55,241 nucleotides of DNA. It comes from an uncultured SAR86 cluster bacterium. Lineage in GTDB: Bacteria > Pseudomonadota > Gammaproteobacteria > Magnimaribacterales > AG-339-G14. The notes below the pieces were generated by a model that saw only the letters and a list, made by a program, of their open reading frames with translations, was not told the origin of the DNA and made no database searches. The number at the start of each line of letters is the position of its first letter. Position 1 is the stretch's first letter. Of this stretch, positions 3,683 to 52,681 are shown in pieces. Made by a program: the position numbers and the translations under genes. The stretch is from contig CABZRA010000004.1 of the NCBI GenBank assembly GCA_902527995.1, positions 1 to 55,241 on the forward strand, given 5' to 3'.

Positions 3683-3719
3683 AAATTCTCTTATTTTGTT
3701 ACTATTGTAGAGTAATCGT

Positions 3720-4265
3720 ATGGAAAAAAAATTAATCTGGTTAGATTTAGAAATGACAGGGTTGGATCCTAATGCTGAACGGATTATAGAAATCTTTACA
3801 GCGGTTAGTAATGAAGATCTTACTGAAATTATTGATGGTCCAAATATAGTAGTTTCTCAACCCCAAGAGTATATAGATGCTATGGACGATTGGAATCAAA
3901 CTCATCACGGTGATTCAGGTTTAATTGAAGATGTGCTTAAAAGTAATATTACCCAAGAAGAGGCAGAGCAAGAAACTTTAAGATTTTTAAGAGAACATGT
4001 AAAAAAAAATTCATCTCCACTCTGTGGTAATACAGTTTGGCATGATAGAAAATTTTTAACTTTATATATGCCTGAATTAGAGGATTACTTTCATTACAGG
4101 TGTATAGACGTTAGTTCGGTTAAAGAGCTAACGAAACGTTGGAGACCTGAGATTTCTATTCAGCACACAAACAAAACTGCTGCTCACAGAGCGCAGGCAG
4201 ATGTTTACGAATCTATAAATGAATTGAGATTCTATAGAGACACTATATTTGCGAAATCAGGATAA
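3720..4265 (+). CDS. orn: Oligoribonuclease
   Basis: IWLDLEMTGLD, HGDSGL, SPLCGN, HYRCIDVSS, HRAQAD DEDDh motifs. Confidence 0.96.
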   Translation: MEKKLIWLDLEMTGLDPNAERIIEIFTAVSNEDLTEIIDGPNIVVSQPQEYIDAMDDWNQTHHGDSGLIEDVLKSNITQEEAEQETLRFLREHVKKNSSPLCGNTVWHDRKFLTLYMPELEDYFHYRCIDVSSVKELTKRWRPEISIQHTNKTAAHRAQADVYESINELRFYRDTIFAKSG

Positions 4266-4270
4266 ATTAA

Positions 4271-5593
4271 ATGAGAAAAGTTTTTATTAAAACTCATGGC
4301 TGCCAAATGAATGAGTATGATTCTGAAAAAATGTTAGACCTTTTGGCAGCAAAGGACGACTTCACGCCAACCGATAATCCTGAGGATGCTGATTTACTAG
4401 TACTTAATACTTGTTCTATTAGAGAGAAGGCTCAAGAAAAAGTGTTTCACCAAATTGGTAGATGGAAAAAACTTAAAGATAAAAACCCTCACGTAAAAAT
4501 AGCCATTGGCGGTTGCGTAGCAAGCCAAGAAGGAAAAAAGATTACGCAAAGAGCGCCAGCAGTTGATATTGTTTTTGGACCTCAGACCCTTCATAGACTT
4601 CCAAATATGTATAAAGATGCAAGCCAAACCTTCAATAGACAGTTAGATGTAAGTTTCCCAAAAATAGAAAAATTTGATTATTTACCTCAATCCAATACCG
4701 ATGAAGTTACAGCTTTTGTTTCGATCGCAGAGGGTTGCAATAAATATTGTTCGTTTTGCGTGGTGCCACACACAAGGGGGCATGAAGTCAGTCGTCCAGT
4801 AGAAGATATCTTATTGGAAATTAATTCCTTAGCGAATAGAGGTGTAAGGGAAATTAATCTTCTTGGTCAGAACGTAAACAACTTCAAAGGAACATATAGG
4901 GATAAAAAAACCTCCTTGGCTTTTTTAATTGAAAAAACTTCGGAAATTAAAGGAATTGATAGAATTAGATACACCACCAGTCATCCCTATGAATTCAAGG
5001 ACGATCTAGTTGAGCTTTATAAACATGTCCCTGAATTAGTCAGTCATGTTCACTTACCTGTTCAAAGCGGATCAGATAGAATTTTAAAACTAATGAGACG
5101 AAGATACACTGCATCGAGGTATTTAGACCTAATTGCACGAATTAGAGCAAATAGACCAAATATAAGTTTTTCATCGGACTTTATTGTTGGGTTTCCTGGA
5201 GAATCAGATAAAGATTTTCAAGATACAATGGATTTAGTTGAAGAAGTAGCATTTGATGAGTCTTTCAGCTTTGTTTATAGTCCGAGGCCTAATACTCCTG
5301 CTGCAGAAATGGAAGACGATATATCTCAGGAAATTAAAAAAGAAAGATTGGCCATTCTTCAACACAAGCTAAATGAACTTTCATCTAAAATATCTAGAAA
5401 AATGGTAGGGACAACAGAAAATTGTTTAGTCATAGGAGTCTCCAAAAAAAATCCAGGAGAGCTCCAGGCGAGGACGGAAAATAATAGGGTAGTAAATTTC
5501 GCTTCCAATCATGACAAGATAGGCAAATTCGTAAATATTAAAATTGTTGATCAGTTGACTAATTCATTGAGAGGTAAGTTAGAAAGATTCTAA
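4271..5593 (+). CDS. miaB: tRNA i6A37 methylthiotransferase MiaB
   Basis: [18 protein letters not shown], radical-SAM CNKYCSFC, C-terminal TRAM domain. Confidence 0.96.
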
Positions 5594-5596
5594 TAT

Positions 5597-8894: not shown

Positions 8895-11069
<2,175 letters not shown>

Positions 11070-11078
11070 GCTTTCATA

Positions 11079-11136
11079 ACTCAGAGGTATTATTTCTAAA
11101 TTACTAAGGTAAATAGAATATAATACCTCGATGAGT
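11079..11136 (+). terminator. Long imperfect hairpin after katG overlapping the coaD -10 box and start codon
   Basis: ACTCA-GAGGTATTAT-TTCTA pairs with TAGAA-T-ATAATACCTC-GA-TGAGT; no U-tract. Confidence 0.5.
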
Positions 11137-11610
11137 CAAAAAGCTATTTACCCTGGTACTTTTGATCCAATTACCAAAGGTCACGTAGATTTAATTGAAA
11201 GAGCTTGTGAATTATTCGATTCGGTTGTTATAGCCATTGCAGCCAGCGAAGCTAAAAATCCTCTGTTTACTCTTGAAGAGAGAATTGAAATTGCAAAGAA
11301 AATATTTTCTGATAATAAAAAAATCGAAGTGATTGGTTTTTCAGGGCTTTTAGTAGATTTAGCAAAAGACAATGATGCAAAAATTTTGATCAGAGGACTG
11401 AGAGTTGTGGCTGACTTTGAATACGAGTTTCAATTAGCAAACATGAATCGTGCAATGATGCCCGAATTAGAGAGTGTATTTTTAACACCAAAAGAAAAGT
11501 ATTCTTATATTTCATCTACTCTAGTCAAAGAAATTTGCAAAATGGGCGGGGATGTATCTGAATTTGTTCACCCAATTTCTCTAGAAGCATTAAAAAGTAA
11601 ACTTTCTTAA
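11131..11610 (+). CDS. coaD: Pantetheine-phosphate adenylyltransferase
   Basis: [29 protein letters not shown]. Confidence 0.97.
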
Positions 11611-12422
11611 CTTTGACATACAGGGCAGTACACGGTTTGTCTGTTTGCCTGCTTAATTAGCTTTAACTTTGCACCGCAAGTTAAACAGGGAAGATTGCCA
11701 CGATCGTAAACTCTTAGCTCTTTTTTAAAGTAACCAGGAGCTTCAGATGCGTTGGTGTAGTCTTTGAGTGTGGTTCCGCCTGCTTCGATGGCCTCAGTCA
11801 AAGTTTGCCTAATGGCTTGAGATAGATCTTCGCAGTTGGTTTTTGAAAGTCTTTGCGATTGTTTTCTTGGGCGGATGCCAGCTAAAAAAAGTGCTTCATT
11901 AGCATAAATATTCCCAACACCAGTGACAATGTTTGCATCCATGATTAAATTCTTTATCGGACGTGTTTTTTTTCTTGTGACTGAAAATAGGTATTTTCCG
12001 TTAAAGCTGTTACCAAGTGGTTCGGGTCCTAAATTTTTAAGTAATTTATGTTGATCAGGTTTAGTGTCAATTTTTATTAAGGCGCCAAATTTTCTGATGT
12101 CTGTATATCTTAAGGTCCAACCATCAGTAAAATTGATATCCCAATGTTCATGTTTCTTTGGGTCAGTAGGTTTGTTGAAAACTCTAAGTTTTCCTGACAT
12201 ACCTAAATGAATCAAGAGATGCCCTTCTGAAAGATTTAAGATAATGTATTTTCCTCTACGCTCAGCAGAGCACACCTTTTTGTTTTTAAGAAATTTTTTG
12301 AGGTTTTTATTTATAGGCCACCTAAGTTTCTCGGTTCTAGGTTCAAAAGAATTTATTTGCTTATTTAGAATTCTTTTTGAAATTCCACGCAGAGTCGTTT
12401 CTACTTCGGGAAGTTCAGGCAT
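11607..12422 (-). CDS. mutM: Formamidopyrimidine-DNA glycosylase
   Basis: [29 protein letters not shown]-terminal zinc finger. Confidence 0.97.
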
Positions 12423-12423
12423 A

Positions 12424-13764
12424 TTAATCTGTCATAAAATTACTGATGTCATAAATATCAGCAGGAGATAAGATGCCAGCAGATAATTTGAGATTAAGTT
12501 CCGCAATAATAAAATCATATTTAGAAGAATTAAAATCTCTCTGAGCTGAGAAAAAATTTCTTTCTGCATTAAGCAAATCTACGATATTCCTTGTATCAGA
12601 TTCATACCCAAATTGAGTAGCTCGCAAAGCTGATCGGGAAGATTTTAATGCTTGTTCACGAGCTTTAACATTTGCTAGGTTTGTAAGCACAGATGAATAA
12701 GAAGATTTAATTTGTTGCTTAATTTTTCTTTCCATTAATATTTCTTCTTGTTGAGCTTTTTCAAAATTCGCATAAGCTTCCCTTCTTTCTGAACTTATTA
12801 GCCCACCAGCCATTAAAGGCCAAGAAAATTGAAGGCTATATTTTCTATCTTCAATATAATTTTCTTCAAAACTAAAATTCCCACCAGCGAAGGAAGGTTG
12901 TCTACTATTGTTGCGAGTCACATTGGCGACAAGGTCAACATCTGGGAAATGATCAGAAAGCTTACTTTGCGCATTTCTCTTAGAGGCTCTGGTAGCAAGT
13001 TTTGCAGCTTTTAAAGAAAAATTATTAGTTAGGCCCATACCTACCCATTGTTCTTGAGACTTAGGATTAGGCGAGCTAACAGGATATGTCTCGTTTAAAT
13101 CAGCTAAATCTGGCGCTTCTCCAATAATCGCTATTAATGCTTCACGAGCAAATTCCAATTGACCTTGACTAGCAATCCTCGAAACTTGGGATAGGTCATA
13201 AAATGCTTGTGCCTCTTGAAAATTAGTAACAGAGGAAACTCCCTCTTCAAAAAGTCTTTTTGCTATGTCTCTTTGTCTCTTGATTGCGCTTTCTTCTGCT
13301 TGAGCTACTTCCAAGTTTTTTATCGCTTTTAATAAGTTGAAATATGTTATCGAAACCCTTGTTATGGTTTCTTGTTGTGCAAAAGCAAATTTGGCTTTAG
13401 CAATTTCGCTCATCGCTTTTCCTTGACTGAATTGGAACCATCTATCAACCCTAAAAATGGGTTGAATTAAATCTGCAGAATATCCATAAGTATTATTTCC
13501 AGTACCGTCAAAAAAGGTGGATTGAGAACCTCGAAGTACTTCTGATTCGTTCCAGCTAGAAATGCCTCTAGTGGTCAAGCTTGGCAAGAGACCTGCTATT
13601 CCTTTTGCTTTGGCTTCTTTTTCGGCACGATAAGTTGCTTCTGCTATTTTCAATTCGGGATCTTTATCTAATGCTAATTCATAAATCTCGGCAAGAGATA
13701 ATGATTGCCCACTTATTAAAATCGAAAGGAAGAATGAAGAAATAATAAAATATAATTTAAACAC
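12424..13764 (-). CDS. tolC: TolC-family outer membrane efflux protein
   Basis: Signal peptide, two OEP repeats, RNIVDLLNAE; tolC/thiC/parE synteny; GTG start. Confidence 0.88.
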   Translation of the reverse strand: MFKLYFIISSFFLSILISGQSLSLAEIYELALDKDPELKIAEATYRAEKEAKAKGIAGLLPSLTTRGISSWNESEVLRGSQSTFFDGTGNNTYGYSADLIQPIFRVDRWFQFSQGKAMSEIAKAKFAFAQQETITRVSITYFNLLKAIKNLEVAQAEESAIKRQRDIAKRLFEEGVSSVTNFQEAQAFYDLSQVSRIASQGQLEFAREALIAIIGEAPDLADLNETYPVSSPNPKSQEQWVGMGLTNNFSLKAAKLATRASKRNAQSKLSDHFPDVDLVANVTRNNSRQPSFAGGNFSFEENYIEDRKYSLQFSWPLMAGGLISSERREAYANFEKAQQEEILMERKIKQQIKSSYSSVLTNLANVKAREQALKSSRSALRATQFGYESDTRNIVDLLNAERNFFSAQRDFNSSKYDFIIAELNLKLSAGILSPADIYDISNFMTD

Positions 13765-13821
13765 ATTGAAATTATATATTATTTAAAGTTGACACTGTAA
13801 ACATTATACAAATGAATATAA

Positions 13822-15660
<1,839 letters not shown>

Positions 15661-15668
15661 GAGAGTAA

Positions 15669-16145
15669 ATGATTAAAGTGGGAGAGCAATTACCCTCAGC
15701 AAAGCTATTTAAGCTTGGAGAAAAAGGAGTAGATGCCATTGAAAGCACCGAATATCTCGCTGATAAAAAGGTAGCTATAGTTTCTGTACCGAGTGCATTT
15801 TCGTCAACATGTTCAATTCAACTCCCTGGTTATATAGAAAAATCTGAAGAAATTCTTTCTAAAGGTATAGATGAAATTGTTTGCTTAGCAGTAAATAATG
15901 CTTTTGTAATGAAAGCGTGGGAAAAGCACCTTGAGGCATCTGACAAAGTAACTTTTCTATCTGATGGAAATGGTGAGTTTTCCAAAGCTATGGGTCTTTT
16001 GGCAGACGCATCAATGATAGGTTTTGGAGAAATTTCAGCAAGGTACGCTGCCGTTGCAAATAATAATGTCTTAGAAGCAGTTTTTGTGGAAGCTGGAACC
16101 GCTCTTGAAGTAAGTACAGCAGAAAATTTACTAAATAATCTTTAA
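15669..16145 (+). CDS. Prx5-type peroxiredoxin
   Basis: VPSAFSSTCS peroxidatic motif, FVMKAW, SDGNGEF; AGGAG SD. Confidence 0.88.
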   Translation: MIKVGEQLPSAKLFKLGEKGVDAIESTEYLADKKVAIVSVPSAFSSTCSIQLPGYIEKSEEILSKGIDEIVCLAVNNAFVMKAWEKHLEASDKVTFLSDGNGEFSKAMGLLADASMIGFGEISARYAAVANNNVLEAVFVEAGTALEVSTAENLLNNL

Positions 16146-16147
16146 TT

Positions 16148-18043
16148 TTGGCCAACTTAAAATATACCGCTGAGTCAATTGAGGTCTTATCGGGATTAGA
16201 GCCCGTAAGAAAAAGACCTGGTATGTATACCGATACCTCTAGTCCAAATCACCTTGTCATGGAAGTTGTAGACAATAGTGTTGATGAAGCAATTGCAGGA
16301 TACGCAAAAGAAATTTCTGTTTCTCTGAATAAGGATAATTCCATCTCTGTCGAAGACGACGGGAGGGGAATGCCAGTTGATTTGCATCCAGAGGAAAAAG
16401 TCCCGGGTGTTGAATTAATATTTTCTAGATTACATGCAGGAGCCAAGTTCTCTAATAAGGAATATGTTTTTTCAGGAGGTTTGCATGGAGTGGGAGTTTC
16501 GGTAGTAAATGCTCTTTCAAGTTATCTAAAAGCAGAAATCAAGAGAGATGGCTCTAAGTTTGCTATTGAATTTGCTGATAGCTTGAAAAAAAAGGATCTA
16601 AAAAAAGTTGATTCGGTAGGGCAAAGAAATACTGGAACAAAAGTTGTCTTTAAACCAGATGCAAGTTTTTTTGATACTGAACAAATTTCTTCAAAAAATC
16701 TTTCTAATGCTTTAAGAGCAAAAGCAGTCCTATGTCCTGGACTCACCATAAAATATAAAGACGAAATTTCTAAAACTAGAGAAGAATGGTGTTACGTAGA
16801 TGGTTTGGGAGATTATCTGATAAATGAACTAGGCGAAGGTCTCTATATTCCTGAAAATCCAATTATAGGGGAGCACATTGATAAAGATTCAGCTCTTTCT
16901 TGGGCCCTAGTATGGGAAAGAGGTGAAAAAGAAAAAATTTCGGAAAGTTATGTAAATCTAATTCCAACTCCTCAAGGTGGGACCCATGTAAATGGAATGA
17001 AAAGCGGAATGACCGAGGCGCTTAAAGAATTTTGTGATTATAGAAAACTAATACCAAGGGGGGTCAAATTAACATCTGATGATGTATGGAAAAATTGTAA
17101 TTTTGTTTTATCAGCTAAACTTACAGATCCTCAATTTAGTGGCCAAACAAAAGAAAAATTGTCTTCAAAAGATTTTCAAAATGTAGCATCGTCAATTTCC
17201 AAAGACAGTCTTGCAATATGGTTAAATCAACATACTGAAGCGGCTGAAGAAATAGCTTTTATAGCCATCGAAAATGCTCAGGTAAGAGTGAAAGCCAGCC
17301 AAAAAGTCGAAAGGAAGAAGATCACAAAAGGAATAACGTTACCTGGAAAGTTATCAGATTGTGTTTCAGGAGAAATCTCAGAGACAGAATTATTTTTAGT
17401 TGAAGGAGAATCAGCAGGAGGATCAGCTAAACAAGCAAGAAATAGACAATTTCAAGCTGTAATGTCGCTTAAAGGAAAAATTTTAAATACTTGGGAAGTT
17501 GATACAGATGCTGTCACACAATCACAAGAAGTAAAAGACATCGCCATGGCCTTAGGTTTGGAACCAGGTTGTAAGACTCTGGAAAATTTAAGGTATGGAA
17601 AAATATGTATTTTGGCCGATGCTGATACTGATGGCGCTCACATAGCTACACTTATTTGCGCACTATTTTTAAAACATTTCAGGCCTTTGGTTGAAGCTGG
17701 ACATGTGTTTATAGCTCAACCTCCTTTATTTAGGATAGATCAAGGAAAAGAAGTATTTTATGCCCTAGATGAAGATGAAAAAGAAAAAATAGTAAAACAA
17801 CTAAATTCAAAAAATAAACAAAAGAAAATTGAGATTCAAAGATTTAAAGGATTAGGAGAAATGAATCCAAGTCAGTTAAGAGAGACGACAATGGAATTAG
17901 ATGGAAGAAGGCTTCTAAAACTAACTTTAGAAAAAGGCAACACCTCTACTTCGTTGATGGATATGTTGTTGTCTAAAAAACGTGCAGGCGATAGAAAAAA
18001 CTGGTTAGAAACAAAAGGAGACCTCGCTAGTTTAAATGAGTAA
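16148..18043 (+). CDS. parE: DNA topoisomerase IV subunit B
   Basis: [50 protein letters not shown]; TTG start. Confidence 0.96.
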
Positions 18044-20264: not shown

Positions 20265-20269
20265 AAAAT

Positions 20270-21319
20270 TTATTCGTTACTAACGTTAGGTATTAATTGT
20301 TGGTTCAATCTTTTCTTCTCCTTTATCTCTTCAATTGCTGCGTTAATTTCAAGGAATCTCTCTGGAGTAGCTGGATGAGTAGAAGTATGGCTCTGATTTA
20401 TACTTCCAGGATGTTCTACGGCCATGTTACGCCAAAAATCAGCAACATTGTCTATTGAGTATCCAGCTCTTTCCATATAATAAATTCCTACGTAATCTGC
20501 TTCAGCCTCAAACTCTTGAGAATACATTCTCGCTCCTGCTTGACCAAATACACCTTGAGTATTTACACCATAATATGCAGCAGCTAGGTCAACTATTGTG
20601 CCAAGAAGGGAATTTGTTCTTAACTTTGAAATATGGTTCATAATGTTATGCCCAAGCTCATGAGCTATCACGAGTCCTAATTGTTCATCTTCCTGAGCAA
20701 ATCTAATCATGCCTGTTGTTATGCCAATTTGACTTCCATTCGCAAAAGCATTCACTGAATCATTTTGAACAAGTAAGATTGGGTAATTGCAAATTAGATC
20801 AGGATCAAACGTAGCAACTCTTTCTTCGCCTTGTCTTTTATAAACTACTTTTAAAGAATCTGATTTAGCCCTAAGCTTTTCAAGCTTTTTATGAAATTTT
20901 TCCTTATCTTCAGAAGCTTTAATATTATTGATCGATACAATTTCATCATTACTTCTAAGTCCACTCTTAAAAGCCGAAGAGCTTGGGATAACATAAGTTA
21001 ATAAAAGCCTATCATCGATTTCGTAAACTTCTTTCTCAACTTCTGAATATTTATCTGAAGATACGTAAGCATTAAACATCACTCCAAGTGAGCTAATTGT
21101 GTTTTCGCATAACTCCGAGGAATTTTTAAGAATTGGATAACCCACTTTTTGAAGTCTTTCATATCTAGCTTTAATTTTTTGAAGCGATAATTTTTGTTGA
21201 AGTTTTGTTTCTGCATCAAGTGCTTCACTATCAATACTTATCCTTTGCGTTGAGGGACCAGCACAAGAGCTTATCAAAGCAAAAATAAGAAGGAGTTTTA
21301 TAAATCTAAAATTCGACAC
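20270..21319 (-). CDS. M48-family Zn metalloprotease lipoprotein with PDZ-like domain
   Basis: Lipobox LISSC, NAFA, HELGH, EAEAD, THP. Confidence 0.85.
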   Translation of the reverse strand: MSNFRFIKLLLIFALISSCAGPSTQRISIDSEALDAETKLQQKLSLQKIKARYERLQKVGYPILKNSSELCENTISSLGVMFNAYVSSDKYSEVEKEVYEIDDRLLLTYVIPSSSAFKSGLRSNDEIVSINNIKASEDKEKFHKKLEKLRAKSDSLKVVYKRQGEERVATFDPDLICNYPILLVQNDSVNAFANGSQIGITTGMIRFAQEDEQLGLVIAHELGHNIMNHISKLRTNSLLGTIVDLAAAYYGVNTQGVFGQAGARMYSQEFEAEADYVGIYYMERAGYSIDNVADFWRNMAVEHPGSINQSHTSTHPATPERFLEINAAIEEIKEKKRLNQQLIPNVSNE

Positions 21320-21372
21320 AATAATATGTTAAGAAATTTTTTTCTTTTAACAAGAATTTGATTAGAAATTTT

Positions 21373-22572
21373 CTAAACGATATTTTTATATGCTTTTTCA
21401 AACCTTTTAAAACCTTCATTGATTTCTTTATCTGAAATTATAAGAGAAGGAGCTAATCGAATGGTTTTATCTCCGGCAGCTTGAACAACGATTAAGCCTT
21501 CTTTGTAAGCAGATTGAATGAAATTTGATGATTTAACAGTCTTAAAATCACATCCAATCCAAAGACCAGCAGTTCTAATATCTGAAAACATATTATATTT
21601 TTCTGTCAAAGCGTTTAATTTTTTTGAAAAAGAGATTGTTTTCTTGACGACTCCAGATAAAACTTTTTGTGAGGATATAATTTCAACCACTTTTTTCGCA
21701 ACAATGCACGCTAATGGGTTTCCGCCGAAAGTACTACCATGAGTTCCGGGTTGAAAAGCTTCAGCTATGTGCTTTTTAGCTAGTGTTGCTCCGATGGGCA
21801 TTCCTCCACCTAACCCTTTTGCTAGCGTTGAAATATCAGGCGTAACTCCATATCCCATATACGACATTAAAGTACCAGTTCTTCCAATCCCACTTTGAAC
21901 CTCATCGAAAATCAATAGCGCTTTATGTTTGTCAGCAATTTTTCTTAGGCCTTTTAAAAATGGATTAGTTGCTCTAATTATTCCTGATTCCCCCAAAATT
22001 GGTTCTATAAAAATTGCGGCCGTTTTTTTTGAGATAATTTTTTTTACCGACTCAAGATCATTAAATTTTGCTCTTTTGAAGCCTTTCAATAATGGTCCAA
22101 AACCAGTTTTTTGTATTTTCGAGTCTCCGGCACTTATATTCAACATAGAGCGACCATGAAAAGCATCAGTGAATACAATTATTTCATTCTTTTCTAACTT
22201 GCCTTGATCATAAAAGTATCTTCTTGCTAGTTTTATCGCAGCTTCATTAGCTTCATTACCAGAATTCGAGAAGAAAACTTTATCAGCAAAAGTTTTTTTT
22301 GCTAATAATTCGCTTAGTTCTAATGCAGGTTCGTTGTAGAGATAGTTACTTACATGCCAAAGCTTAGTCGATTGAGCTTTTAAAACTTTAATAAGTTCAG
22401 GATGAGAATGACCAAGGCAGGTAACAGCAATTCCTCCGCCGAAATCAACGTAATTATTTCCATTTGAATCCCATAAAATTGATTTTTTCCCTTTGATAGG
22501 GGTAAACCATGCAGGAGCATAATTAGGAGTTAACGCTGTTCTATCAATAGAATTTATTATTTTCTTAGCCAT
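21373..22572 (-). CDS. argD: Acetylornithine/succinylornithine aminotransferase
   Basis: DFGGGIAV, NSGNEANEAAIK, DEVQSGIGRTG, AKGLGGG, HGSTFGGNP. Confidence 0.9.
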   Translation of the reverse strand: MAKKIINSIDRTALTPNYAPAWFTPIKGKKSILWDSNGNNYVDFGGGIAVTCLGHSHPELIKVLKAQSTKLWHVSNYLYNEPALELSELLAKKTFADKVFFSNSGNEANEAAIKLARRYFYDQGKLEKNEIIVFTDAFHGRSMLNISAGDSKIQKTGFGPLLKGFKRAKFNDLESVKKIISKKTAAIFIEPILGESGIIRATNPFLKGLRKIADKHKALLIFDEVQSGIGRTGTLMSYMGYGVTPDISTLAKGLGGGMPIGATLAKKHIAEAFQPGTHGSTFGGNPLACIVAKKVVEIISSQKVLSGVVKKTISFSKKLNALTEKYNMFSDIRTAGLWIGCDFKTVKSSNFIQSAYKEGLIVVQAAGDKTIRLAPSLIISDKEINEGFKRFEKAYKNIV

Positions 22573-24265: not shown

Positions 24266-24307
24266 AATTAGGAAGTTAATTATACACATTGAGTTAAAAT
24301 CATCATC

Positions 24308-24730
24308 ATGAATGAAGATAAATTTCCATTACCGAATGGATATAAAAAGATAGAACAGACAGAAAGTCATATATCTCATATTGGACAAGGTTTTTATAAA
24401 AGAAATGACAGCGGTAATTTAGTTATGGCTTTTTGGATAAGACCTGAAAATGGAAACTCTGGAGGCGTAGCCCATGGTGGAATGTTAATGAGCATTGCAG
24501 ATTATTGTCTGTGTTCTGCAGCAATGGAATCTCGGGAAAATTATGCAGCCACTGTAAGTTTTAGATGTGAATTTATTGCACCAGCAAAAGTCGGACGTCT
24601 TTTAGAAATTTTCCCAAAAATTGATAAAGAAACAAAAAGTCTTGTTTTTGGACAAGGTAAAATTATATGTGACGGCGAAGTAGTTCTTAATTTTTCTGGA
24701 GCAGTAAAAAAAATCTTAAAAAGTACTTAA
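24308..24730 (+). CDS. PaaI-family hotdog thioesterase
   Basis: NSGGVAHGGMLMSIAD motif. Confidence 0.88.
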   Translation: MNEDKFPLPNGYKKIEQTESHISHIGQGFYKRNDSGNLVMAFWIRPENGNSGGVAHGGMLMSIADYCLCSAAMESRENYAATVSFRCEFIAPAKVGRLLEIFPKIDKETKSLVFGQGKIICDGEVVLNFSGAVKKILKST

Positions 24731-25966
24731 TTTTTTTTGAACTAAAATTCCCTTTAATCTAGCTATATCTGGAATTCCTTTTAAATATTTTATTGATGCT
24801 TCCCCTTGAATTAAAGGCCTTAAATATCTTCTACCTGCATTTGTAATTCTAAATCCGTCATTTGAAATAAATGCAGCAGGTAATTTTTTTTCCACATTAG
24901 CTATATTTTTTAAAGAGGCTTCAGAAACTGTCCATTTATAAGGCTGGTCACTGACTCGTCTAATAGTCGGCATCACTCCTGTTTTACCGCTCAAAGCGAG
25001 TTGAACGGCATATTTTCCAACCGCATATGCCTGATCTAGATCTGTTTTGGATGCAATATGTCTTGCTGATCTTTGGAGATAATCAGCTACCGCCCAATGA
25101 TTCTTTAAACCAATTTTGGTTACCATCGATGCAAGAACTGGTGCGACTCCACCTAGCTGCTTATGGCCAAAAGCATCAACTGATCCTGAATCTGCTAAAA
25201 ATTTTCCAGTTTTGTATTTAACTCCCTCAGAAGCTACAACAACACAGTATCCAAATCTTTGAGTTTTTTCTTTCACAGTCTTTAAAAACTTAGCTTTTTC
25301 AAAAGGTATTTCAGGAAGCAAAATAATATGTGGTGGATCTTCAAATTCGTTCCCCGCTAGACATGACGCTGCGGCAATCCATCCAGCATTTCTGCCCATA
25401 ACTTCTAAAATAAAAACTTTGGTTGAAGTTTCCGCCATGCTTTTAACGTCAAGTCCAGCTTCTAGAGTTGATGTTGCTACATATTTAGCTACTGATCCAA
25501 AACCAGGAGAACAATCAGTGAAAGGAAGGTCATTATCAACAGTCTTAGGAATACCAATACACTGAAGAGGAAACTTTAACTTCTTGGCCATCTCAGAAAC
25601 TTTGAAAGTTGTGTCTTGACTATCCCCACCTCCGTTATAAAAAAAATAACCTATGTCGTGAGCAGAAAATACTTCGAATAACCTTTCATACTCTTTTTTT
25701 TGTTTGACCGGGTCTTGCAATTTGAAACGACAAGATCCAAAAGCTCCTCCAGGAGTTTGTCTTAATTTTGCAATGGTAGATTTGGACTCTTTGGAAGTAT
25801 CAATGAGCTCTTCATTTAAAGCTCCTAAAATTCCATTTTTACCAGCTAGAACCTTATTAATTTTCGAAGATTTATTAACTGTTTCAATTAACCCACATGC
25901 CGAGGCATTTATCACAGAAGTAACTCCTCCGGATTGAGCGTAAAAAGCATTTTGTTTTAGAGCCAT
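24716..25966 (-). CDS. pfp: 6-phosphofructokinase, probably pyrophosphate-dependent
   Basis: QSGG, NGGGDS (Asp at the 104-equivalent), PKTVDND (Lys at the 124-equivalent), EVMGRNAGW. Confidence 0.88.
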   Translation of the reverse strand: MALKQNAFYAQSGGVTSVINASACGLIETVNKSSKINKVLAGKNGILGALNEELIDTSKESKSTIAKLRQTPGGAFGSCRFKLQDPVKQKKEYERLFEVFSAHDIGYFFYNGGGDSQDTTFKVSEMAKKLKFPLQCIGIPKTVDNDLPFTDCSPGFGSVAKYVATSTLEAGLDVKSMAETSTKVFILEVMGRNAGWIAAASCLAGNEFEDPPHIILLPEIPFEKAKFLKTVKEKTQRFGYCVVVASEGVKYKTGKFLADSGSVDAFGHKQLGGVAPVLASMVTKIGLKNHWAVADYLQRSARHIASKTDLDQAYAVGKYAVQLALSGKTGVMPTIRRVSDQPYKWTVSEASLKNIANVEKKLPAAFISNDGFRITNAGRRYLRPLIQGEASIKYLKGIPDIARLKGILVQKKLSTF

Positions 25967-26018
25967 CAAACAAATATAACTGAAAAAAGTATTTCTGTGA
26001 AAAGGATATAATTTACAA

Positions 26019-27365
26019 ATGAAAATTTATATTCTTGGCATCTGTGGAACTTTTATGAGTGGGGTTGCTCAATTGGCAATCCAAAAAGGATTCCAGGTCT
26101 CTGGGTGCGATGAAAATATCTATCCTCCAATTAGTGACGTCTTAAAAGATCTTGGAGTAAAAATTGATAAGGGTTATTCAGAAAAATACTATTCTGAAAA
26201 TACAGATTTATTCATTATTGGCAACGTAGTTAGTAGAGGAAACCCTTTGATGGAAAAAATTCTTAACGAAGATAAATCTTTTTCTTCGGGTCCAGAATTT
26301 TTATTTAATTATGTTCTAAAAGATAGACACGTCGTTTCAATTGCTGGAACTCATGGAAAAACTACCACCTCTGCAATGATTACAAAAATCTTATTAGATT
26401 TCGGTATTGATGCCGGATATTTAATTGCAGGAAAAGTTAAAGATTTTTCAAATTCAGCTGAATTAGGTAACGATAAGCTTTTTGTTATCGAATCGGATGA
26501 ATACGACACTGCATTTTTTGATAAAAGATCAAAATTTATTCATTACAAACCATCTACTCTGTTAATTAATAATCTAGAATTTGATCATGCTGATATTTTT
26601 AACAATTTGGATGATATACAAAAACAGTTTCATCATTTAATTAGATCATTGCCTCAGAACGTAAAAGTTTTATTTCCTTTTGGAGATGACAATATACAAA
26701 CTCTTTTAAAAAATGGTTTCTACTCAATAAAAGAGCCTTTTAATTTTGAATTTTCTGAAAAAGGATGGTCCATGATAATCAATGAAAATAAAACCTCTGA
26801 TTTTAAGGTTTGTTTCAATGGAGAACTTGTAAACGAAATTTCATTAAAACTGATTGGTGAGCATAACTTGCGAAACGCTTTTGCTGCCTTTCTTACAGCC
26901 TTATCGTTAGGAGTAACACCTAATTCTATTAAAAATTCACTTTTAAATTTTAAGGGTGTTGCGAGGAGAATGGACCTTTTAGGAGAAAAAAACACAGTTT
27001 CTGTTTATGATGATTTTGCTCATCATCCAACGGCAATTAAACTTTCCTTAGAGGCATTAAAGAAAGCTGATAGTTCAAGAAAAATTATTTGTCTCCTAGA
27101 GATGCGTTCAAACACTATGCTGTCAGGGTTTCATGATGAAAAAATTCCAGAAGCTGTATCGAATGCAGATGAGGTATACCTTTTTTCAAAAAATGAGACC
27201 CAAGCTAAAAAGATAATAAGCCAAGATCCTAAAATTAATTTCTGCGAATCTAAAGAGGAATTTTTAAAAATTTTGAGGAAAAAAAATTATCAGGAAACGA
27301 ATATTATTTGTTTTTCTAATGGTTCTTTTGGCGGAATTCAATCAGAGATTTTTAAGAATTTATGA
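26019..27365 (+). CDS. mpl: Murein peptide ligase Mpl
   Basis: GICGTFM, GTHGKTTT, DEYDTAFFDKRSKF, LEFDHADIF, DDFAHHP. Confidence 0.95.
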   Translation: MKIYILGICGTFMSGVAQLAIQKGFQVSGCDENIYPPISDVLKDLGVKIDKGYSEKYYSENTDLFIIGNVVSRGNPLMEKILNEDKSFSSGPEFLFNYVLKDRHVVSIAGTHGKTTTSAMITKILLDFGIDAGYLIAGKVKDFSNSAELGNDKLFVIESDEYDTAFFDKRSKFIHYKPSTLLINNLEFDHADIFNNLDDIQKQFHHLIRSLPQNVKVLFPFGDDNIQTLLKNGFYSIKEPFNFEFSEKGWSMIINENKTSDFKVCFNGELVNEISLKLIGEHNLRNAFAAFLTALSLGVTPNSIKNSLLNFKGVARRMDLLGEKNTVSVYDDFAHHPTAIKLSLEALKKADSSRKIICLLEMRSNTMLSGFHDEKIPEAVSNADEVYLFSKNETQAKKIISQDPKINFCESKEEFLKILRKKNYQETNIICFSNGSFGGIQSEIFKNL

Positions 27366-30315: not shown

Positions 30316-30327
30316 AGAATTTCTTAA

Positions 30328-39680: not shown

Positions 39681-40456
39681 TGATTCAAATTAATAAACTC
39701 TTGATGGCCCGTATTAAGAGAATTGTTTAAATATTTTTCCATAAAATCATTTGCTTCTTTGCAACTTTTGTATAAATTTTTTGATTTGATCAAATTGCAA
39801 AGTATTGATGTTGAAAGGGCGCAACCTGTTCCATGAATTTTTTTATTTAATTTAGAGGTTTTTATTTCAAGTTTTTTTTCCCCATTTACGTAGAGCGTAT
39901 TAACTATATTTTTACTAATTTCATTCCCAGTGACGTAAATTTTGCTAATTCCTAAATCTTGAAGTTTTTTTATAGAATCTTCTGGTTCTTTAAAGCCAGT
40001 TAAATAAAAGAGTTCTTCGCTATTCGGTGTTAAAACAGAAGCGAGTGGGTATAATTTTTTTAAAGCTAAATTTAAATTTTTTTTCTTTAAAAATAAGCCT
40101 CCTCCTCCAGCCTTTATTATTGGATCAATAACTATGGGGATATTTAGATGTAATTTTAAAAAGTTAGCAGTTTCTTCAATAATTTTATTTGATGAGACTG
40201 CACCGATTTTAATTCCAGAAACTTCGAAATTTTTTACCATATTTTTTAAACTTTTTTTAAAAAATTTTTCGTTAACATCAATTACTTTGTATAACTTTTT
40301 TGCGTCTTGAATAGTCAAATTATTGATTACGGAAAGACAATGAAAATTAAATTTATTAGCAACCATTATGTCCATCGTCATTCCTGCAGCACTCGTTGGA
40401 TCGTGCCCTGATATTGTTAAAATAAATTTTTTCTGACTCATGTTAAATAAACTCAT
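39677..40456 (-). CDS. thiD: Hydroxymethylpyrimidine/phosphomethylpyrimidine kinase
   Basis: GHDPTSAAG, KIG, DPI, TPN, HGTGC; start may be 40441. Confidence 0.87.
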   Translation of the reverse strand: MSLFNMSQKKFILTISGHDPTSAAGMTMDIMVANKFNFHCLSVINNLTIQDAKKLYKVIDVNEKFFKKSLKNMVKNFEVSGIKIGAVSSNKIIEETANFLKLHLNIPIVIDPIIKAGGGGLFLKKKNLNLALKKLYPLASVLTPNSEELFYLTGFKEPEDSIKKLQDLGISKIYVTGNEISKNIVNTLYVNGEKKLEIKTSKLNKKIHGTGCALSTSILCNLIKSKNLYKSCKEANDFMEKYLNNSLNTGHQEFINLNQ

Positions 40457-40495
40457 TATAATGCTGCTCTAAGACAAGCCAAACTAATTAAAAAG

Positions 40496-41512
40496 ATGGA
40501 AAAAAGCAAAGTTGGTATAATCGGTGCAACAGGATACGTTGGCGAAGAATTACTCAAACTTCTTGATCAAAAAACTGACCTAGAAGTCTCTTTTTTATCT
40601 TCCTCAAATAGTATTGGAGAAAATCTTTATGAAAAGATTAAGCCATTCAATAACATAAAAGATCAAAAGTTTTTTCCTGCTGAAGAGGCTATTTTAAAAG
40701 ATCTTGATTATGCTTTCTTTGCTACACAACATAATTTTTCTATGGACATTGTTCCCTCATTACTAAGAAAAAAAATCAAAGTAATAGATCTTTCTGCAGA
40801 TTTTAGATTTTCTGACCCCAATTTATGGCAGCAAGCATATGAAGATGAACATCGAGCCACAGACTTATTAAAAAATGCAGTTTATGGTTTACCTGAACTA
40901 GAAAGAGAAAAAATAAAAGATGCTGATCTAGTTGCTGTTCCAGGTTGTTACCCTACAGCTTCACTTTTGGGAATAATTCCAGCTATTCACTATCTAAAAA
41001 AAGAACCTCAAATAATTTTAGACGTAAAATCAGGCATAAGCGGAGCGGGCAGGCAAACGGTTGAAAATAAATTGTCAGTCGAAATTGAAGACAATTTTAA
41101 GGCTTATTCGCCTGAGTTTCATAGACATCAATCAGAAATTTCACATTTTCTAGAAAAACAATATGGATCGGCTCCCTTTATAATATTCACACCTCATTTG
41201 ATTCCAACATTTAGAGGAGAATATGTAACTTGTTATTTAGAAATAGAAAATCAAGAGAATAATTTCCAAGAAATTTACGAGAACTTCTATAAAAACGAAA
41301 AATTTGTTAGAGTATTACCGAAAGGTACGATACCTGAGATAAAAAAGGTACAAAACACAAACTTTTGCGACCTATCAATTTTTAAGAAAAAAAATATTTT
41401 GACAGTACATATCGCTATTGATAACCTCCTTAAAGGTGCCGCGAGCCAAGCGGTTCAATGTTTAAACTTAATGTCCGGAGCTAAAGAAGATTCAGGATTA
41501 AATTCATTATGA
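40496..41512 (+). CDS. argC: N-acetyl-gamma-glutamyl-phosphate reductase
   Basis: GATGYVG, DLSADFR, PGCYPT, SGISGAG, DNLLKGA. Confidence 0.95.
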   Translation: MEKSKVGIIGATGYVGEELLKLLDQKTDLEVSFLSSSNSIGENLYEKIKPFNNIKDQKFFPAEEAILKDLDYAFFATQHNFSMDIVPSLLRKKIKVIDLSADFRFSDPNLWQQAYEDEHRATDLLKNAVYGLPELEREKIKDADLVAVPGCYPTASLLGIIPAIHYLKKEPQIILDVKSGISGAGRQTVENKLSVEIEDNFKAYSPEFHRHQSEISHFLEKQYGSAPFIIFTPHLIPTFRGEYVTCYLEIENQENNFQEIYENFYKNEKFVRVLPKGTIPEIKKVQNTNFCDLSIFKKKNILTVHIAIDNLLKGAASQAVQCLNLMSGAKEDSGLNSL

Positions 41513-44262: not shown

Positions 44263-44325
44263 TTTTAATCTTCAATTATTTTATCTGTTAAAGTTATAAA
44301 AGTTATTTTTTGATATTCTAATTAA

Positions 44326-45549
44326 ATGCTTACAGTTCAAGAAAAAATCGAAATTCTCCTAAGAGGCATCGAAGAAGTAATTCCTAAAAAAGATTTTATC
44401 TCTTTGATCGAAAAGAAACAAAAGTTAACTGTAAAAGCTGGGTTTGATCCAACTTCACCCGATTTGCATTTAGGCCATACAGTTTTAATAAATAAGCTAA
44501 AGCAATTTCAAGATTTAGGTCATAAAGTGATCTTTCTAATTGGCGATTTCACTGGCTCTATTGGCGACCCTTCTGGAGTTAGTGAAACAAGACCTGTTTT
44601 ATCAAAAGAAGAGTTAAAAAAAAATTCAGCTACATATAAAAAACAAATATTCAAAATTTTAGATCCTAAAAAGACAGACATACAGTTTAATTCGAGCTGG
44701 TTCAATAAAATGAAGCCCCAAGATTTTGTAAAATTAGCTTCTTCAATGACTGTTGCCAGGATGCTTGAAAGGGAAGACTTTAGTAAAAGATACAAATCAA
44801 ATCAGCCTATTTCGATTCATGAATTTTTGTATCCTTTAGTACAAGGATACGATTCATTTTTTCTTAAAGCTGATGTTGAACTCGGAGGGACAGACCAAAA
44901 GTTCAACTTATTAGTTGGAAGAGATATACAAAAAATCAATGGAATGAAAGAACAGATAATTATCACTTTACCCATTCTCGAAGGTTTGGATGGGGTAAAG
45001 AAGATGTCCAAGTCTTTGAATAATTATGTTGGGTTGACAGATAATCCCGATGAGATGTTCGGAAAGCTAATGTCTATTTCAGATGAAATGATGTGGCGTT
45101 ATTATGATCTTCTGAGTTTTAAAACCAATAAAGAAATTAAAAAATTAAAAAATATGTCATCTTCTGGAATTGACTTAATGGAGACAAAGTTTAAGTTGAG
45201 TTTAGAAATTGTGGAAAGATTCCACGGTAAAAGGAAATCAATAATGGCATTGGAGGAATTTAAAAATAGGTTTGGCAAAAAAAAAGACCCCACAAATATT
45301 TTAAATCTTGATTTAAAAATAAAACAGAAGTCTTTAAAATTGATTGATCTTTTAGCGCATTCTGGACTTGGAGAGAATATATTTTGTCAAAGCAAATCTG
45401 AAGCCAGAAGAATGCTGTCCCAATCTGCGGTAAAGGTTGATGGAAAAAAGGTAACTAAGGAAGATTTTTTAGTCAAAATCAACAAAAAAACCTTAATTCA
45501 AGTAGGAAAAAGGAGGCATTTAAAAATTACTTTAAAAAGCTCAAATTAA
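44326..45549 (+). CDS. tyrS: Tyrosine--tRNA ligase
   Basis: [28 protein letters not shown]-terminal S4 domain. Confidence 0.97.
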
Positions 45550-45745: not shown

Positions 45746-47279
<1,534 letters not shown>

Positions 47280-47552
47280 CTATAAAACACGATTTTTACT
47301 GTGAGTGTCCGCTCGAATTGCATGAATTAGTTTTCTAACCTTTAAGGTTAAGAGTGTTTTTTAAAAGTATTGTGATCCAAATATTAATAATTATTGTTAT
47401 CAATTATTAATAGAATTTTTAAAAGTTTTAAAACTTTTAAACATCAAGTTCAAGAATTAAATTTATTTAATTCTGAATGCTAATGGCAAATAAAATTAGG
47501 CGCTTATTATTCAAATTGTCTTAACTTTCAAACTTTTTAGTTTAGAAACATT

Positions 47553-50641: not shown

Positions 50642-50653
50642 TTCTTGTTAAAT

Positions 50654-51460
50654 TTAAATTGTCCCCATACAAATTGCATATTCACTTTTTTCATGAAAAG
50701 CGACTTCAATTTCAGCTAACTTAAATCCATCTTCTAAAATTTCCCTCATTAAAGTATATTTTTGCGTTCGCCCTATTACATATACTTTTTTAATTTCATA
50801 AAAATAAGCAGAAGTTATTGCTGTTTTTAAAATAGTTTGTCCGACCATGCTAATTATTCCTGCAGCTAGATCCTCCTTTGAACAATCAGAAAATTCACTT
50901 TTGCCGAAATTCACCGCGCTAGCTGTTTCTGGTAGGTTGCCTATTGGTCCAGAAACCACGTCTTTCAGAAGTAAATCAACTTTTTCTTTTTCACCTTTGG
51001 CCGAAAGAGAATTTATGATTTCATGCGAATCCTCTTTAATAATTAAACTACAAAGTCCTTTGATCGTGCCACCTCCAAGTCCTGTCCCTCCAGAATGAAA
51101 AATTTCATTGTTATTTTTTATTGCACAGGCAGAGCCGGAACCTAAACTAATTACCATAAAAGAGTTTTCTTCAGGATTGAATAGAGAAATAGCTCCTTTA
51201 ACGATGGCATCGATTTCGTTGAAATGATCTATTTTAATTTGCTCGTAAGATGATGGAAGGTCTAAATGTTTACCTCCGGTAACTCCTATTTTTGATAAGT
51301 TATCAACCTCAGAGACACAAGAATCTATAATCTCTTTTAGGAAATTAACTGATGCCCCCTTCGAATCAAAGGATTTAAACTCGAGTTCTGAGTTTTTGGA
51401 AATAACAACGTCGGTGTTAGTAATACCGAAGTCTATTCCTAATTTTGTAGATTTAGCCAT
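50654..51460 (-). CDS. Type II (Fumble/CoaW-like) pantothenate kinase-like protein
   Basis: GIDFG, NEIDA, SLGSG, GGTGLGGGT, VDLLLKD, NFGK, EDLAAG. Likely ATG start at 51460; the ORF track uses TTG at 51481. Confidence 0.78.
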   Translation of the reverse strand: MAKSTKLGIDFGITNTDVVISKNSELEFKSFDSKGASVNFLKEIIDSCVSEVDNLSKIGVTGGKHLDLPSSYEQIKIDHFNEIDAIVKGAISLFNPEENSFMVISLGSGSACAIKNNNEIFHSGGTGLGGGTIKGLCSLIIKEDSHEIINSLSAKGEKEKVDLLLKDVVSGPIGNLPETASAVNFGKSEFSDCSKEDLAAGIISMVGQTILKTAITSAYFYEIKKVYVIGRTQKYTLMREILEDGFKLAEIEVAFHEKSEYAICMGTI

Positions 51461-51494
51461 ATTGCTGTTACTAACAGGCAATATAGATTAAAAA

Positions 51495-52646
51495 CTAAGC
51501 GTTTGCTTGAGCTTCTTGAATTGCTGCAAGCATCTCATCTGAATCTTTTTTAACTTCTTCAGATGATTCAAGAGGTTTAGAAATTTCTGCCCAGTCAATT
51601 TCGTAATCGCTAGTTGCATTTTCGTATTCTAGGATACCCAACTCTTCGTATCTTGGCCTTATTGATTCAGTTAATAGTCCAATTCTTTTAAGATTAGGCA
51701 TTACTCTAGAAAATAAGAAACTTCTAAATTGGTCAAGCCCCCCGTTATTTAGTTGGAAAACTCTGGCCTCTTCTTCAGACATCTTTAAAAATTTTGACAT
51801 TGCTTTAGTGTTGATCAATCTTTCTTTAGAGACCACACAAGCTTCAAAAGCGAATTCAGCTCTTTCCTCTATTTCTTCAGGAGATAAAGTTTTTACAAAA
51901 TCTTCTAAGTAATTTATACCAAAAGTGACGTGTCTAGCTTCATCTCTAATTATGTAGTGAAGAAGTGTTTGTAATAAAGGGTCCCTTGCTGATAATTTCA
52001 TATTTGTGAAAGCTGCGAGAGCAAGTCCTTCAATAATAATCTGCATTCCAATGAACTTTAGATCCCATCTTTCGTCGGTAAGTATTTTGTCTAATAAAGC
52101 TTTTAAATTAGGGTTAATGGGATAATGAAACCCAATTTTTTCCTGCAAATATCTGTTAAAAACTTCTACGTGTCTAGCTTCGTCAAAAGTTTGTGAAGCC
52201 GCATACATTTTTGCGTTGAAGGTAGGAGCACAGCTAGCGATCTGAGAAGCAACCAAAAGCGCTCCTTGTTCACCATGCAAAAATTGACATAAAACTTCAG
52301 CAGTTTCGTGCCTATCAAATTCAATTTTTTCTTCGTCCGATAAAGCTTTATATGAGTCTAATTGTTCATGAGGAAATTCTACTCCATCAACTCCTAGAAG
52401 CTTCTCATCCTTTGGATGATTGTAACTCCAATCAAGATCAATCGATCCATTCCAATTGAGTTCTTTTCCTAATTCATAAAGTTTTTTTATTCTATTTTCA
52501 GCAACCGTGTAGTCCCAATTGTAAGATCCAGTAAGGGGCGTGTTGAAAATCTCAACTACGTCTTCAACGTCTTTTTCTTTAAGGTCTAGTTCATCATCGA
52601 AATAGACTAAATCTTCAGGTGGCCCAGGTCTTTTAGTAATTTTCAT
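51495..52646 (-). CDS. Ferritin-like di-iron protein (AurF-like oxygenase superfamily)
   Basis: LHGEQGAL, DEARHVEVF, IIEGLAL, DEARHVTFG: two E...DExxH sets. Confidence 0.85.
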   Translation of the reverse strand: MKITKRPGPPEDLVYFDDELDLKEKDVEDVVEIFNTPLTGSYNWDYTVAENRIKKLYELGKELNWNGSIDLDWSYNHPKDEKLLGVDGVEFPHEQLDSYKALSDEEKIEFDRHETAEVLCQFLHGEQGALLVASQIASCAPTFNAKMYAASQTFDEARHVEVFNRYLQEKIGFHYPINPNLKALLDKILTDERWDLKFIGMQIIIEGLALAAFTNMKLSARDPLLQTLLHYIIRDEARHVTFGINYLEDFVKTLSPEEIEERAEFAFEACVVSKERLINTKAMSKFLKMSEEEARVFQLNNGGLDQFRSFLFSRVMPNLKRIGLLTESIRPRYEELGILEYENATSDYEIDWAEISKPLESSEEVKKDSDEMLAAIQEAQANA

Positions 52647-52681
52647 TGATATAAATTATTCCTTTGCAGCAATAAAGTCAA
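52647..52681 (-). promoter_or_regulatory. Sigma70-like promoter abutting the start codon of the di-iron gene
   Basis: TTGACT (52681-76)-17 nt-TAATTT (52658-53)-6 nt-ATG. Confidence 0.7.

Follow-up and report, generated by a model that had tools for sequence, protein, structure and literature searches.

What does it mean when a -10 promoter box stands so close to a start codon that transcription would begin on the codon itself, and how widely does a lineage use such an arrangement? The question is raised by a stretch of 55,241 nucleotides (nt) of an uncultured SAR86 cluster bacterium (assembly GCA_902527995.1, contig CABZRA010000004.1, positions 1 to 55,241 of the forward strand; the whole of this stretch is the window in what follows). 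A sequence-only reading had picked out ten genes there that are preceded by the hexamer TAnnnT at a spacing of six or seven nt from the start codon (N6 or N7), and had described a pervasive architecture of leaderless messenger RNAs (mRNAs). The analysis presented here indicates that the hexamer marks a minority class of sigma70-type promoters that abut start codons and would probably give leaderless mRNAs, and that this class spans at least two families of an order of marine gammaproteobacterial genomes of 0.9-1.8 Mb. In the proposed mechanism, the -10 hexamer (TAnnnT, mostly TATAAT-like) occupies positions -12 to -7, counted from the start codon, transcription by RNA polymerase would begin with the A or G of that codon itself, the resulting mRNA would carry neither a 5′ untranslated region (UTR) nor a Shine-Dalgarno (SD) sequence, and ribosomes (presumably 70S) would initiate at the 5′-terminal AUG or GUG.

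The window is contig C4 of a genome of 777 kb in 45 contigs (G000; 71% complete), which has a guanine plus cytosine (GC) content of 34% and gene calls that span about 94% of the DNA. Two further genomes were surveyed with it, namely the whole of a complete congener (G005; 1,194,046 bp) and the first 800 kb of a sister-family genome of 1.59 Mb (G025), and single genes were followed through 30 relatives, which represent four families (f1 to f4, with the window's own genus as one of four genera, g1 to g4, of f1) of one order with genome sizes of 0.9-1.8 Mb. Genes were called by our own caller, which combines open reading frames (ORFs) with a Markov model (784 genes in G000, 1128 in G005), and for these two genomes starts were fixed by aligning 715 reciprocal-best orthologue pairs, yielding 682 conserved start columns. 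A gene was counted as 'first' by a distance rule, when its upstream neighbour is divergent or when the same-strand gap is at least 40 nt; this gave 336, 506 and 348 first genes in G000, G005 and G025 (1190 pooled). The loose motif is TAnnnT, the strict motif requires at least five of six matches to TATAAT including TA...T, the SD class is defined by an SD-like core 4-mer at -15 to -4, and the null model consists of 500 dinucleotide-preserving shuffles for each of the three genomes. The pairwise conserved-start rule set the starts of tolC (13587) and the M48 gene (21079) too far downstream, so that the genome-wide counts are perhaps slightly low; these two starts were judged from multi-genome comparison instead.

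At a spacing of six nt, the loose motif precedes 42 of the 336 first genes of G000, 58 of 506 in G005 and 47 of 348 in G025, against shuffle expectations of 15.9 +/- 3.7, 23.0 and 15.4 (z = 7.1, 8.0 and 8.0), and the strict motif is found 26, 36 and 27 times against 4.8, 6.8 and 4.6 (z = 9.9, 11.7 and 10.2). Neighbouring spacings yield only about 18 (G000) and 25 (G005) loose matches and about 6 and 8 strict ones. The peak is single and sharp, with the hexamer at -12, under every way of placing starts (three rules as well as orthologue-fixed starts): longest-ORF starts give 43 of 312 first genes in G000, and conserved starts give 36/300 and 34/318. The enrichment over shuffled sequence that the sequence-only reading had anticipated is therefore borne out at N6 in all three genomes and does not extend to N7, where no single genome shows enrichment (25 vs about 18, 27 vs about 25 and 19 vs about 18); a small excess at N7 emerges only on pooling the three (31 vs about 10 for the strict motif in non-SD genes). 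Its underlying idea, a gene class whose sigma70-type -10 box would position +1 on the start codon, appears to be sound. The window itself is richer than the genome from which it comes, with TAnnnT at N6/7 before 14 of its 27 first genes (using the starts of the sequence-only reading) vs 67 of 336 genome-wide. Raw counts of TATAAT-Nk-ATG, made without any gene calls, show a weak contrast (16 and 22 at N6 vs about 10 and 14 at other spacings).

Several controls bear on the origin of the peak. Out-of-frame ATGs within -60 to +120 of the same starts have none (3/600 and 5/928), and there is no rise at N3 or N9, the neighbouring in-frame spacings, so that in-frame stop codons do not account for the peak. 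A control set of 80 loci (1.0 Mb) from other Gamma- and Betaproteobacteria, gathered as relatives in an Mpl search at no more than 45% identity and treated with a plain longest-ORF caller, shows no N6 peak (strict 3/581, loose 12/581), while the same caller applied to G000 finds 24 strict and 42 loose matches at N6 among 311 genes; the class is indeed unusual beside typical members of these groups, as had been supposed. Position in the transcription unit matters too: strict N6 boxes precede 26/336 first vs 8/378 internal genes in G000, 36/506 vs 13/597 in G005 and 27/348 vs 10/356 in G025, i.e. 7.1-7.8% vs 2.1-2.8%, or about 3.5-fold.

The boxes at N6 also look like promoter elements in their own composition and evolution. 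They are TATAAT-like, the frequency of A at -9 and -8 being 0.60-0.67 vs 0.37-0.41 for TAnnnT elsewhere upstream. Start codons of the 100 N6-class genes of G000 and G005 are ATG (86), GTG (13) and TTG (1); specifically, TTG is found in 0/42 and 1/58 of them vs 33/294 and 64/448 (together 97/742) of the other first genes, and GTG in 8/42 vs 13/294. The near-absence of TTG fits a purine at +1 and a 5′-terminal AUG or GUG. A strict box at N6-7 precedes 0/265 SD-class first genes vs 120/925 non-SD genes, and the N6 hexamer physically occupies the SD position. Between G000 and G005, identity in N6-class genes is 0.72-0.86 over the hexamer and 0.41-0.56 at -4 to -1, where other genes have 0.62-0.72, so that these are the least conserved bases of the class; the box keeps the same spacing in 15 of 22 genes and shifts by one nt in a further four. 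Since family profiles align from residues 1-7 of Mpl, CoaD, Orn, Pfp, LexA, FdxA, TsaD, ArgG, SmpB and UbiA, the start codons are not miscalled.

As for the extent of the class, pooling the 1190 first genes gives a strict excess over the far-upstream baseline of about 79 at N6, 21 at N7 and 59 at N8-12. These figures suggest that about 8% of first genes are of the leaderless type (about 100 of 1190 at N6-7, or 8.4%) and that a further 5% or so would have leaders of 1-6 nt. Over all genes, the loose N6 excess amounts to 26/784, 35/1128 and 32/728 (3.1-4.3%). 'Pervasive' is therefore not the right word, the excess being confined to roughly one in twelve of the genes that open transcription units; the architecture is a clear minority class amid generally short, mostly SD-less leaders.

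Gene content does not follow the division into leaderless housekeeping genes and SD-led stress or catabolic genes that had been proposed. The box is present in both G000 and G005 before 37 genes, including those for SpoT, TsaD, ArgG, LexA, FabA, PncC (PncC/CinA), SmpB, FdxA and UbiA besides genes of the window, and the class also includes an efflux channel. An SD is present in both genomes before 56 genes, KatG and thiolase among them, and others whose N-termini read as those of DnaK, EF-Tu, ribosomal proteins S6 and L20, SdhA, DnaA and many beta-oxidation enzymes; conservation is higher in the SD class than in the leaderless class (median identity 89.6 vs 83.0%, Mann-Whitney P = 0.023). A better reading is that SD sequences serve high-demand genes and the leaderless type serves genes of low or moderate demand, including regulators. 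The suggestion of a streamlining strategy fares no better: the strict N6 share is alike in the 1.2-Mb genomes (26/336 and 36/506) and in the 1.6-Mb sister-family genome (27/348), and a simple link to genome size is accordingly not shown.

The ten sites of the window with which the question began are all present in the sequence, with the hexamers and spacings that had been claimed for them. They are:

3708..3722, plus strand: orn; TAGAGT at 3708-3713, N6, ATG at 3720, with an invariant TATTGT overlapping 5 nt further upstream
11119..11133, plus strand: coaD; TATAAT at 11119-11124, N6, ATG at 11131
13762..13776, minus strand: TolC-family gene; TATAAT at 13776-13771, N6, GTG at 13764
13881..13896, plus strand: thiC; TAAAAT at 13881-13886, N7, GTG at 13894
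21317..21331, minus strand: M48-like protease gene; TAACAT at 21331-21326, N6, GTG at 21319; a weak case
24295..24310, plus strand: PaaI-like thioesterase gene; TAAAAT at 24295-24300, N7, ATG at 24308
25964..25978, minus strand: pfp (pyrophosphate-dependent phosphofructokinase, PPi-phosphofructokinase); TATATT at 25978-25973, N6, ATG at 25966
26007..26021, plus strand: mpl; TATAAT at 26007-26012, N6, ATG at 26019, facing pfp across 52 bp
44311..44328, plus strand: tyrS; TGATATTCT at 44311-44319, N6, ATG at 44326; a weak case
52644..52681, minus strand: di-iron gene; TTGACT at 52681-52676, 17 nt, TAATTT at 52658-52653, N6, ATG at 52646

NCBIfam profiles uphold the names orn, coaD, TolC family, ThiC, PPi-phosphofructokinase, mpl and tyrS; those of the M48, PaaI and di-iron genes rest on weak matches below the curated cut-offs. 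A survey of the ten genes across the relatives, which accepted TAnnnT at N6 or N7 before an in-frame start no more than 15 nt from the aligned N-terminus, found the arrangement in 65/73 cases in the window's own genus, 61/93 in the other three genera of its family and 28/74 in the other three families, with control counts at N9/10 of 3, 7 and 16. By this comparison eight of the ten sites would belong to the leaderless-type class with good support, and tyrS and the M48 gene are weak. Conservation extends across f1 for the sites of mpl, pfp, PaaI, orn and coaD, whose spacers vary in sequence and not in length. Specifically, mpl reads G(G/A)TATAAT-N6-ATG/GTG in 18/18 f1 and 4/4 f2 genomes, with N7 in 4/4 of f3 and no such box in the four of f4; its spacer sequence differs among genera, and position 1 of the Mpl profile falls on residue 2. 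For pfp, N6/7 is found in 18/18 f1, 3/4 f2 and 4/4 f4 orthologues, 3/4 of those in f3 being SD-led, and the PPi-phosphofructokinase profile aligns from residue 4. The PaaI-like gene has N6/7 in 16/16 f1 and 2/2 f2 orthologues with variable spacers. TAnnnT-N6 is kept before orn in 19/19 f1 orthologues, the nnn and the spacer varying, and the NCBIfam oligoribonuclease profile aligns from residue 2; coaD, whose profile aligns from residue 5, has N6/7 in 16/18 f1 orthologues and N9, after a 3-nt insertion, in the other two.

The remaining genes have narrower distributions. The box of tolC stands at N6 in 8/8 own-genus genomes, with GTG or ATG starts, and is of the leaderless type in this genus only. 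The thiC box is at N6 or N7 in 8/8 g1 and 4/4 g3 genomes and not in g2 (N10) or g4; if the thiC mRNA is leaderless, there is no room for a thiamine pyrophosphate (TPP) riboswitch, and none was detected by Rfam at the gathering threshold upstream of the gene (13765-13893) or elsewhere in the window. Before the di-iron gene, TTGACT or TTGACA, 17 nt and a box at N6/7 are kept in g1 and g4, and g2 has TATAAT-N6 (12/12 over these three genera). The M48 box is kept in 4/7 own-genus genomes, the other three having TATCAT about 10 nt from a different ATG, and no M48 gene was found outside the genus with the query used. The tyrS box is kept in 3/8 own-genus genomes and in 0/8 from the other f1 genera, -10-like boxes elsewhere lying 9-12 nt upstream.

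Two of these genes look disrupted in a near-identical relative (G006; loci L173, L254 and L258), where the thiC match has an in-frame TGA and the M48 gene is matched in two pieces; these may be pseudogenes or assembly errors. Upstream of the PaaI-like gene, 42 bp from its start, lies the divergent start (24265) of an acyl-CoA dehydrogenase gene (23099-24265), whose profile aligns from residue 1 at ATG 24265 and not at 24289; a conserved TGTGTATAAT precedes this ATG by 13 nt, which would make for an SD-less leader of about 7 nt.

Comparison between families and genera adds that orthologues toggle between a leader that bears an SD and a box that abuts the start, as judged for coaD, orn, tolC, the di-iron gene and lexA. 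In f2, coaD has an SD in 4/4 genomes (GGAG, AGGA or GGAGG), in the order TATAAT, GGAGG, start, and the same TATTGTAAATT box stands about 23 nt ahead of the orn start, with GGGAA after it. In genera g2 and g4 tolC has GAGGAG or GGGGA and TTG, all seven orthologues being SD-led, and the di-iron gene is SD-led (AAGG or GGGAG) in 3/4 g3 and 4/4 f3 orthologues.

Two compact promoters outside the window illustrate the architecture further. In G000, fdxA (contig C2, start 26111, minus strand) and pncC/cinA (start 26132) are divergent and 20 bp apart, the gap consisting of six bases, the palindromic AATTATAATT and another six bases, so that a TATAAT lies 6 nt from each ATG; two polymerases could not occupy this gap simultaneously. 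The arrangement is kept in 10/10 loci of g1 and g4; in g3 the gap is again 20 bp, with N5/N7, and in g2 it measures 23 bp (loci L409-L430). Upstream of lexA (contig C3, start 55950; region about 55910-55952) the sequence reads ATGACA-17-TATAAT-N6-ATG, and the gene's own SOS box, CTGT-N8-ACAG, covers -10 to +1 (loci L380-L408). The box is kept at N6-N8 throughout f1 and f4 except in g3, where the SOS box abuts the ATG but the -10 is TATAAA; in one f2 genome the same box precedes a leader that contains GGAG. The lexA arrangement would be a repressible leaderless promoter. The textbook leaderless transcript of Escherichia coli, the cI mRNA made from PRM of phage lambda, starts at the A of its AUG and likewise codes for a repressor with an operator that overlaps the promoter region of its gene; it comes from a single phage gene, whereas the class described here is chromosomal and conserved across an order. 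A separate divergent pair, in the window at 40441-40496, is 54 bp apart and shares a palindromic CATTATAATG that lies 13 nt and 32 nt from the two ATGs, neither gene having an SD.

The anti-SD is intact, as had been noted: the 16S rRNA gene (45746-47279) ends in GGATCACCTCCTAA, with the anti-SD core CCTCC at 47272..47276 on the plus strand. The adjoining 16S-23S spacer (47280-47552, about 273 bp) has no tRNA gene, and ARAGORN found no tRNA in the whole 55-kb window. The SDs that had been cited as a contrast to the ten sites do stand before KatG (8931), thiolase (28734), the flavin oxidoreductase (31718) and the genes of 158 and 125 residues called 'peroxiredoxin' and 'MazG', although these last two names are unconfirmed (no NCBIfam family at 1e-10). 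Nevertheless, an SD-like core occurs at -15 to -4 in only 78/336, 106/506 and 81/348 first genes (21-23%), and 175 of 300 first genes with conserved starts (58%) have neither an SD nor an N6/7 box in either genome. In SD genes the -10 boxes lie at spacings of at least 13 nt, mostly 20-29, and in non-SD genes there are 108 boxes at N8-12 vs about 49 expected. Divergent starts are close together, with median gaps of 69, 75.5 and 91 bp and, in G000, 46 of 101 pairs separated by no more than 60 bp.

Twenty public RNA runs from 11 studies, with sample labels of marine or seawater metagenome, contain part of window positions 20001-30000 (best share 0.49), all as assembled contigs, from which transcript starts cannot be read. 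Over 11001-31000 (four runs, three studies), no sites at which molecules start or end were reported, and the divergent gaps are bridged by 0 of the 32 pieces listed of 334, which speaks neither way.

How, then, are these observations best explained? The view that leaderless initiation prevails among operon-first genes, in a two-tier system of housekeeping vs stress or catabolic genes shaped by streamlining, draws on the scarcity of SD cores, the tiny divergent gaps (medians of 69-76 bp) and the surplus of boxes at N8-12, and many SD-led genes do appear to encode beta-oxidation enzymes (names read from N-termini); if strict boxes reveal only one promoter in four or so, as they do in the SD class, the leaderless share could by extrapolation reach about 30%. 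Set against this are the direct excess of about 8%, the majority of first genes with neither signal, the apparent EF-Tu, DnaK, S6, L20, SdhA and DnaA on the SD side with their higher conservation, the presence of LexA, SpoT and PncC on the other, and the equal share in genomes of 1.6 and 1.2 Mb, and we regard this explanation as unlikely. Slightly harder still to credit is the idea that TAnnnT at -12 to -7 is an A/U-rich, non-SD element which recruits ribosomes to leadered mRNAs transcribed from further upstream, on the model of genomes that have non-SD ribosome-binding motifs. Low SD use despite an intact anti-SD, the lack of -35 enrichment and a small N6 bump in internal genes would suit it, but the motif is 3-4 times commoner before first than before internal genes, and the GeneMarkS-2 authors define non-SD ribosome binding sites by the opposite pattern, a motif shared by all genes (PMC6028130). 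The TATAAT-like consensus with its fixed T, A and T positions and the TTGAC-17 elements conserved upstream in some cases (the di-iron gene, lexA) also speak for a promoter; moreover, a 20-bp divergent gap is too small for two leaders outside coding sequence, the f2 orthologues of coaD and orn place the same box upstream of a real SD, and a ribosome-binding element leaves the rarity of TTG starts unexplained. Finally, the motif might be put down to chance in AT-rich intergenic DNA, or to artefacts of start calling or in-frame stops, given that about 5% of first genes have TAnnnT at any one upstream position, that -12 hexamers are in frame with the start and that a TAA stop at gap 9 yields matches in internal genes. 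With z values of 7-12 over dinucleotide shuffles, no peak at N3, at N9 or at out-of-frame ATGs, robustness to the start rules and none of the signal in control loci under the same caller, such an origin for the class as a whole is highly improbable; only single sites, tyrS and the M48 gene for example, could still be explained in this way.

Promoters abutting start codons thus remain the preferred explanation, and the following observations count against it. About 38% of the loose N6 matches in G000 (some 16 of 42) are expected by chance, and therefore the motif alone proves no single site. Internal genes show a small loose bump at N6 (25/378 and 31/597), of which the upstream TAA stop at gap 9 accounts for only 5 and 9. 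A TTGACA-like -35 at 16-18 bp is not enriched (at least four of six matches in 21% vs 10-22% of controls), although the di-iron gene and lexA do have conserved TTGACT/ATGACA-17 elements; an AGGA lies 12-13 nt upstream of the start in both mpl and the di-iron gene; and the relatives compared are kin and not independent samples, f3 and f4 having been assessed by the ten genes and lexA alone. A candidate was also rejected as a false match: the 'N7' hexamer before recA (contig C2, 26679) is part of the LexA box, with a TATAAT further upstream, and is probably no -10 box.

A broader proposal goes beyond the class just described. Most non-SD units of the order (three quarters of first genes have no SD core) might be translated, in a manner dependent on the 5′ end, from mRNAs that are leaderless or have leaders of 1-6 nt, the N6 peak being only the part made visible by strong -10 boxes; the lineage would then be a gammaproteobacterial counterpart of the Actinobacteria and Deinococcus, with palindromic -10 boxes driving divergent leaderless pairs 20 bp apart and frequent toggling among orthologues. 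We consider this speculative and doubtful as it stands.

The signal and its interpretation are already in print; the class in this lineage appears to be new. Zheng et al. (2011) identified TANNNT about 12 bp upstream as the -10 box of genes without a 5′ UTR, likewise testing it against dinucleotide shuffles, and found such TA-led genes in 15/239 gamma-proteobacterial genomes, mostly Xanthomonadales and Legionellales, at 3.0-5.7% of genes (PMC3160421). The signal described here is the same and its excess of 3.1-4.3% of genes falls within that range, in a lineage that differs in being of an uncultured marine type with genomes of 0.9-1.8 Mb and 34-36% GC. Group C of GeneMarkS-2 (Mycobacterium tuberculosis, Deinococcus) has a Pribnow box 6-8 nt before operon-first starts and SD-type sites before other genes, with 25-50% of operons predicted to be leaderless (40% in M. 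tuberculosis), and is rare among Proteobacteria, at 104 of 1854 (PMC6028130); box placement in first genes is alike, whereas the share demonstrable here by motif excess, about 8%, is lower. An ordinary marine baseline is provided by Alteromonas macleodii Te101, for which 10 leaderless cases among 1315 gene transcription start sites and a median 5′ UTR of 63 nt are reported (PMC5864184): by prediction only, the present lineage has about ten times that leaderless-type share, and many of its predicted -10 boxes lie within 40 nt of starts. Thermotoga maritima has a dense genome in which promoters fit into very short intergenic regions and 5′ UTRs are unusually short, features discussed as an effect of compaction, but these leaders are of 11-17 nt with strong SDs and no leaderless transcript is recorded there (PMC3636130), while here SD use is low and some leaders are apparently gone altogether. 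Literature searches found no work on leaderless genes in SAR86, although the per-genome lists of PMC6028130 and PMC3160421 might include relatives; no title or abstract on translation initiation was found for SAR86 with Shine-Dalgarno, and for leaderless genes with genome streamlining or Pelagibacter, PMC9516812 and PMC2704228 touch the subject only in their reference lists.

These results correct an over-reading, as low SD use and AT-rich DNA make leaderless architecture seem more pervasive than the statistics permit, and they have practical consequences: gene finders tuned to SD sequences will misplace the starts of this class in abundant, mostly uncultured marine bacteria, for which a leaderless model is advised. 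The switches between SD-led and leaderless-type orthologues (coaD, orn, tolC, the di-iron gene, lexA and pfp) form a natural series on the exchange of translation-initiation modes, and the 20-bp fdxA/pncC pair and the operator within the lexA promoter offer small systems in which bidirectional and repressible leaderless promoters, respectively, can be tested.

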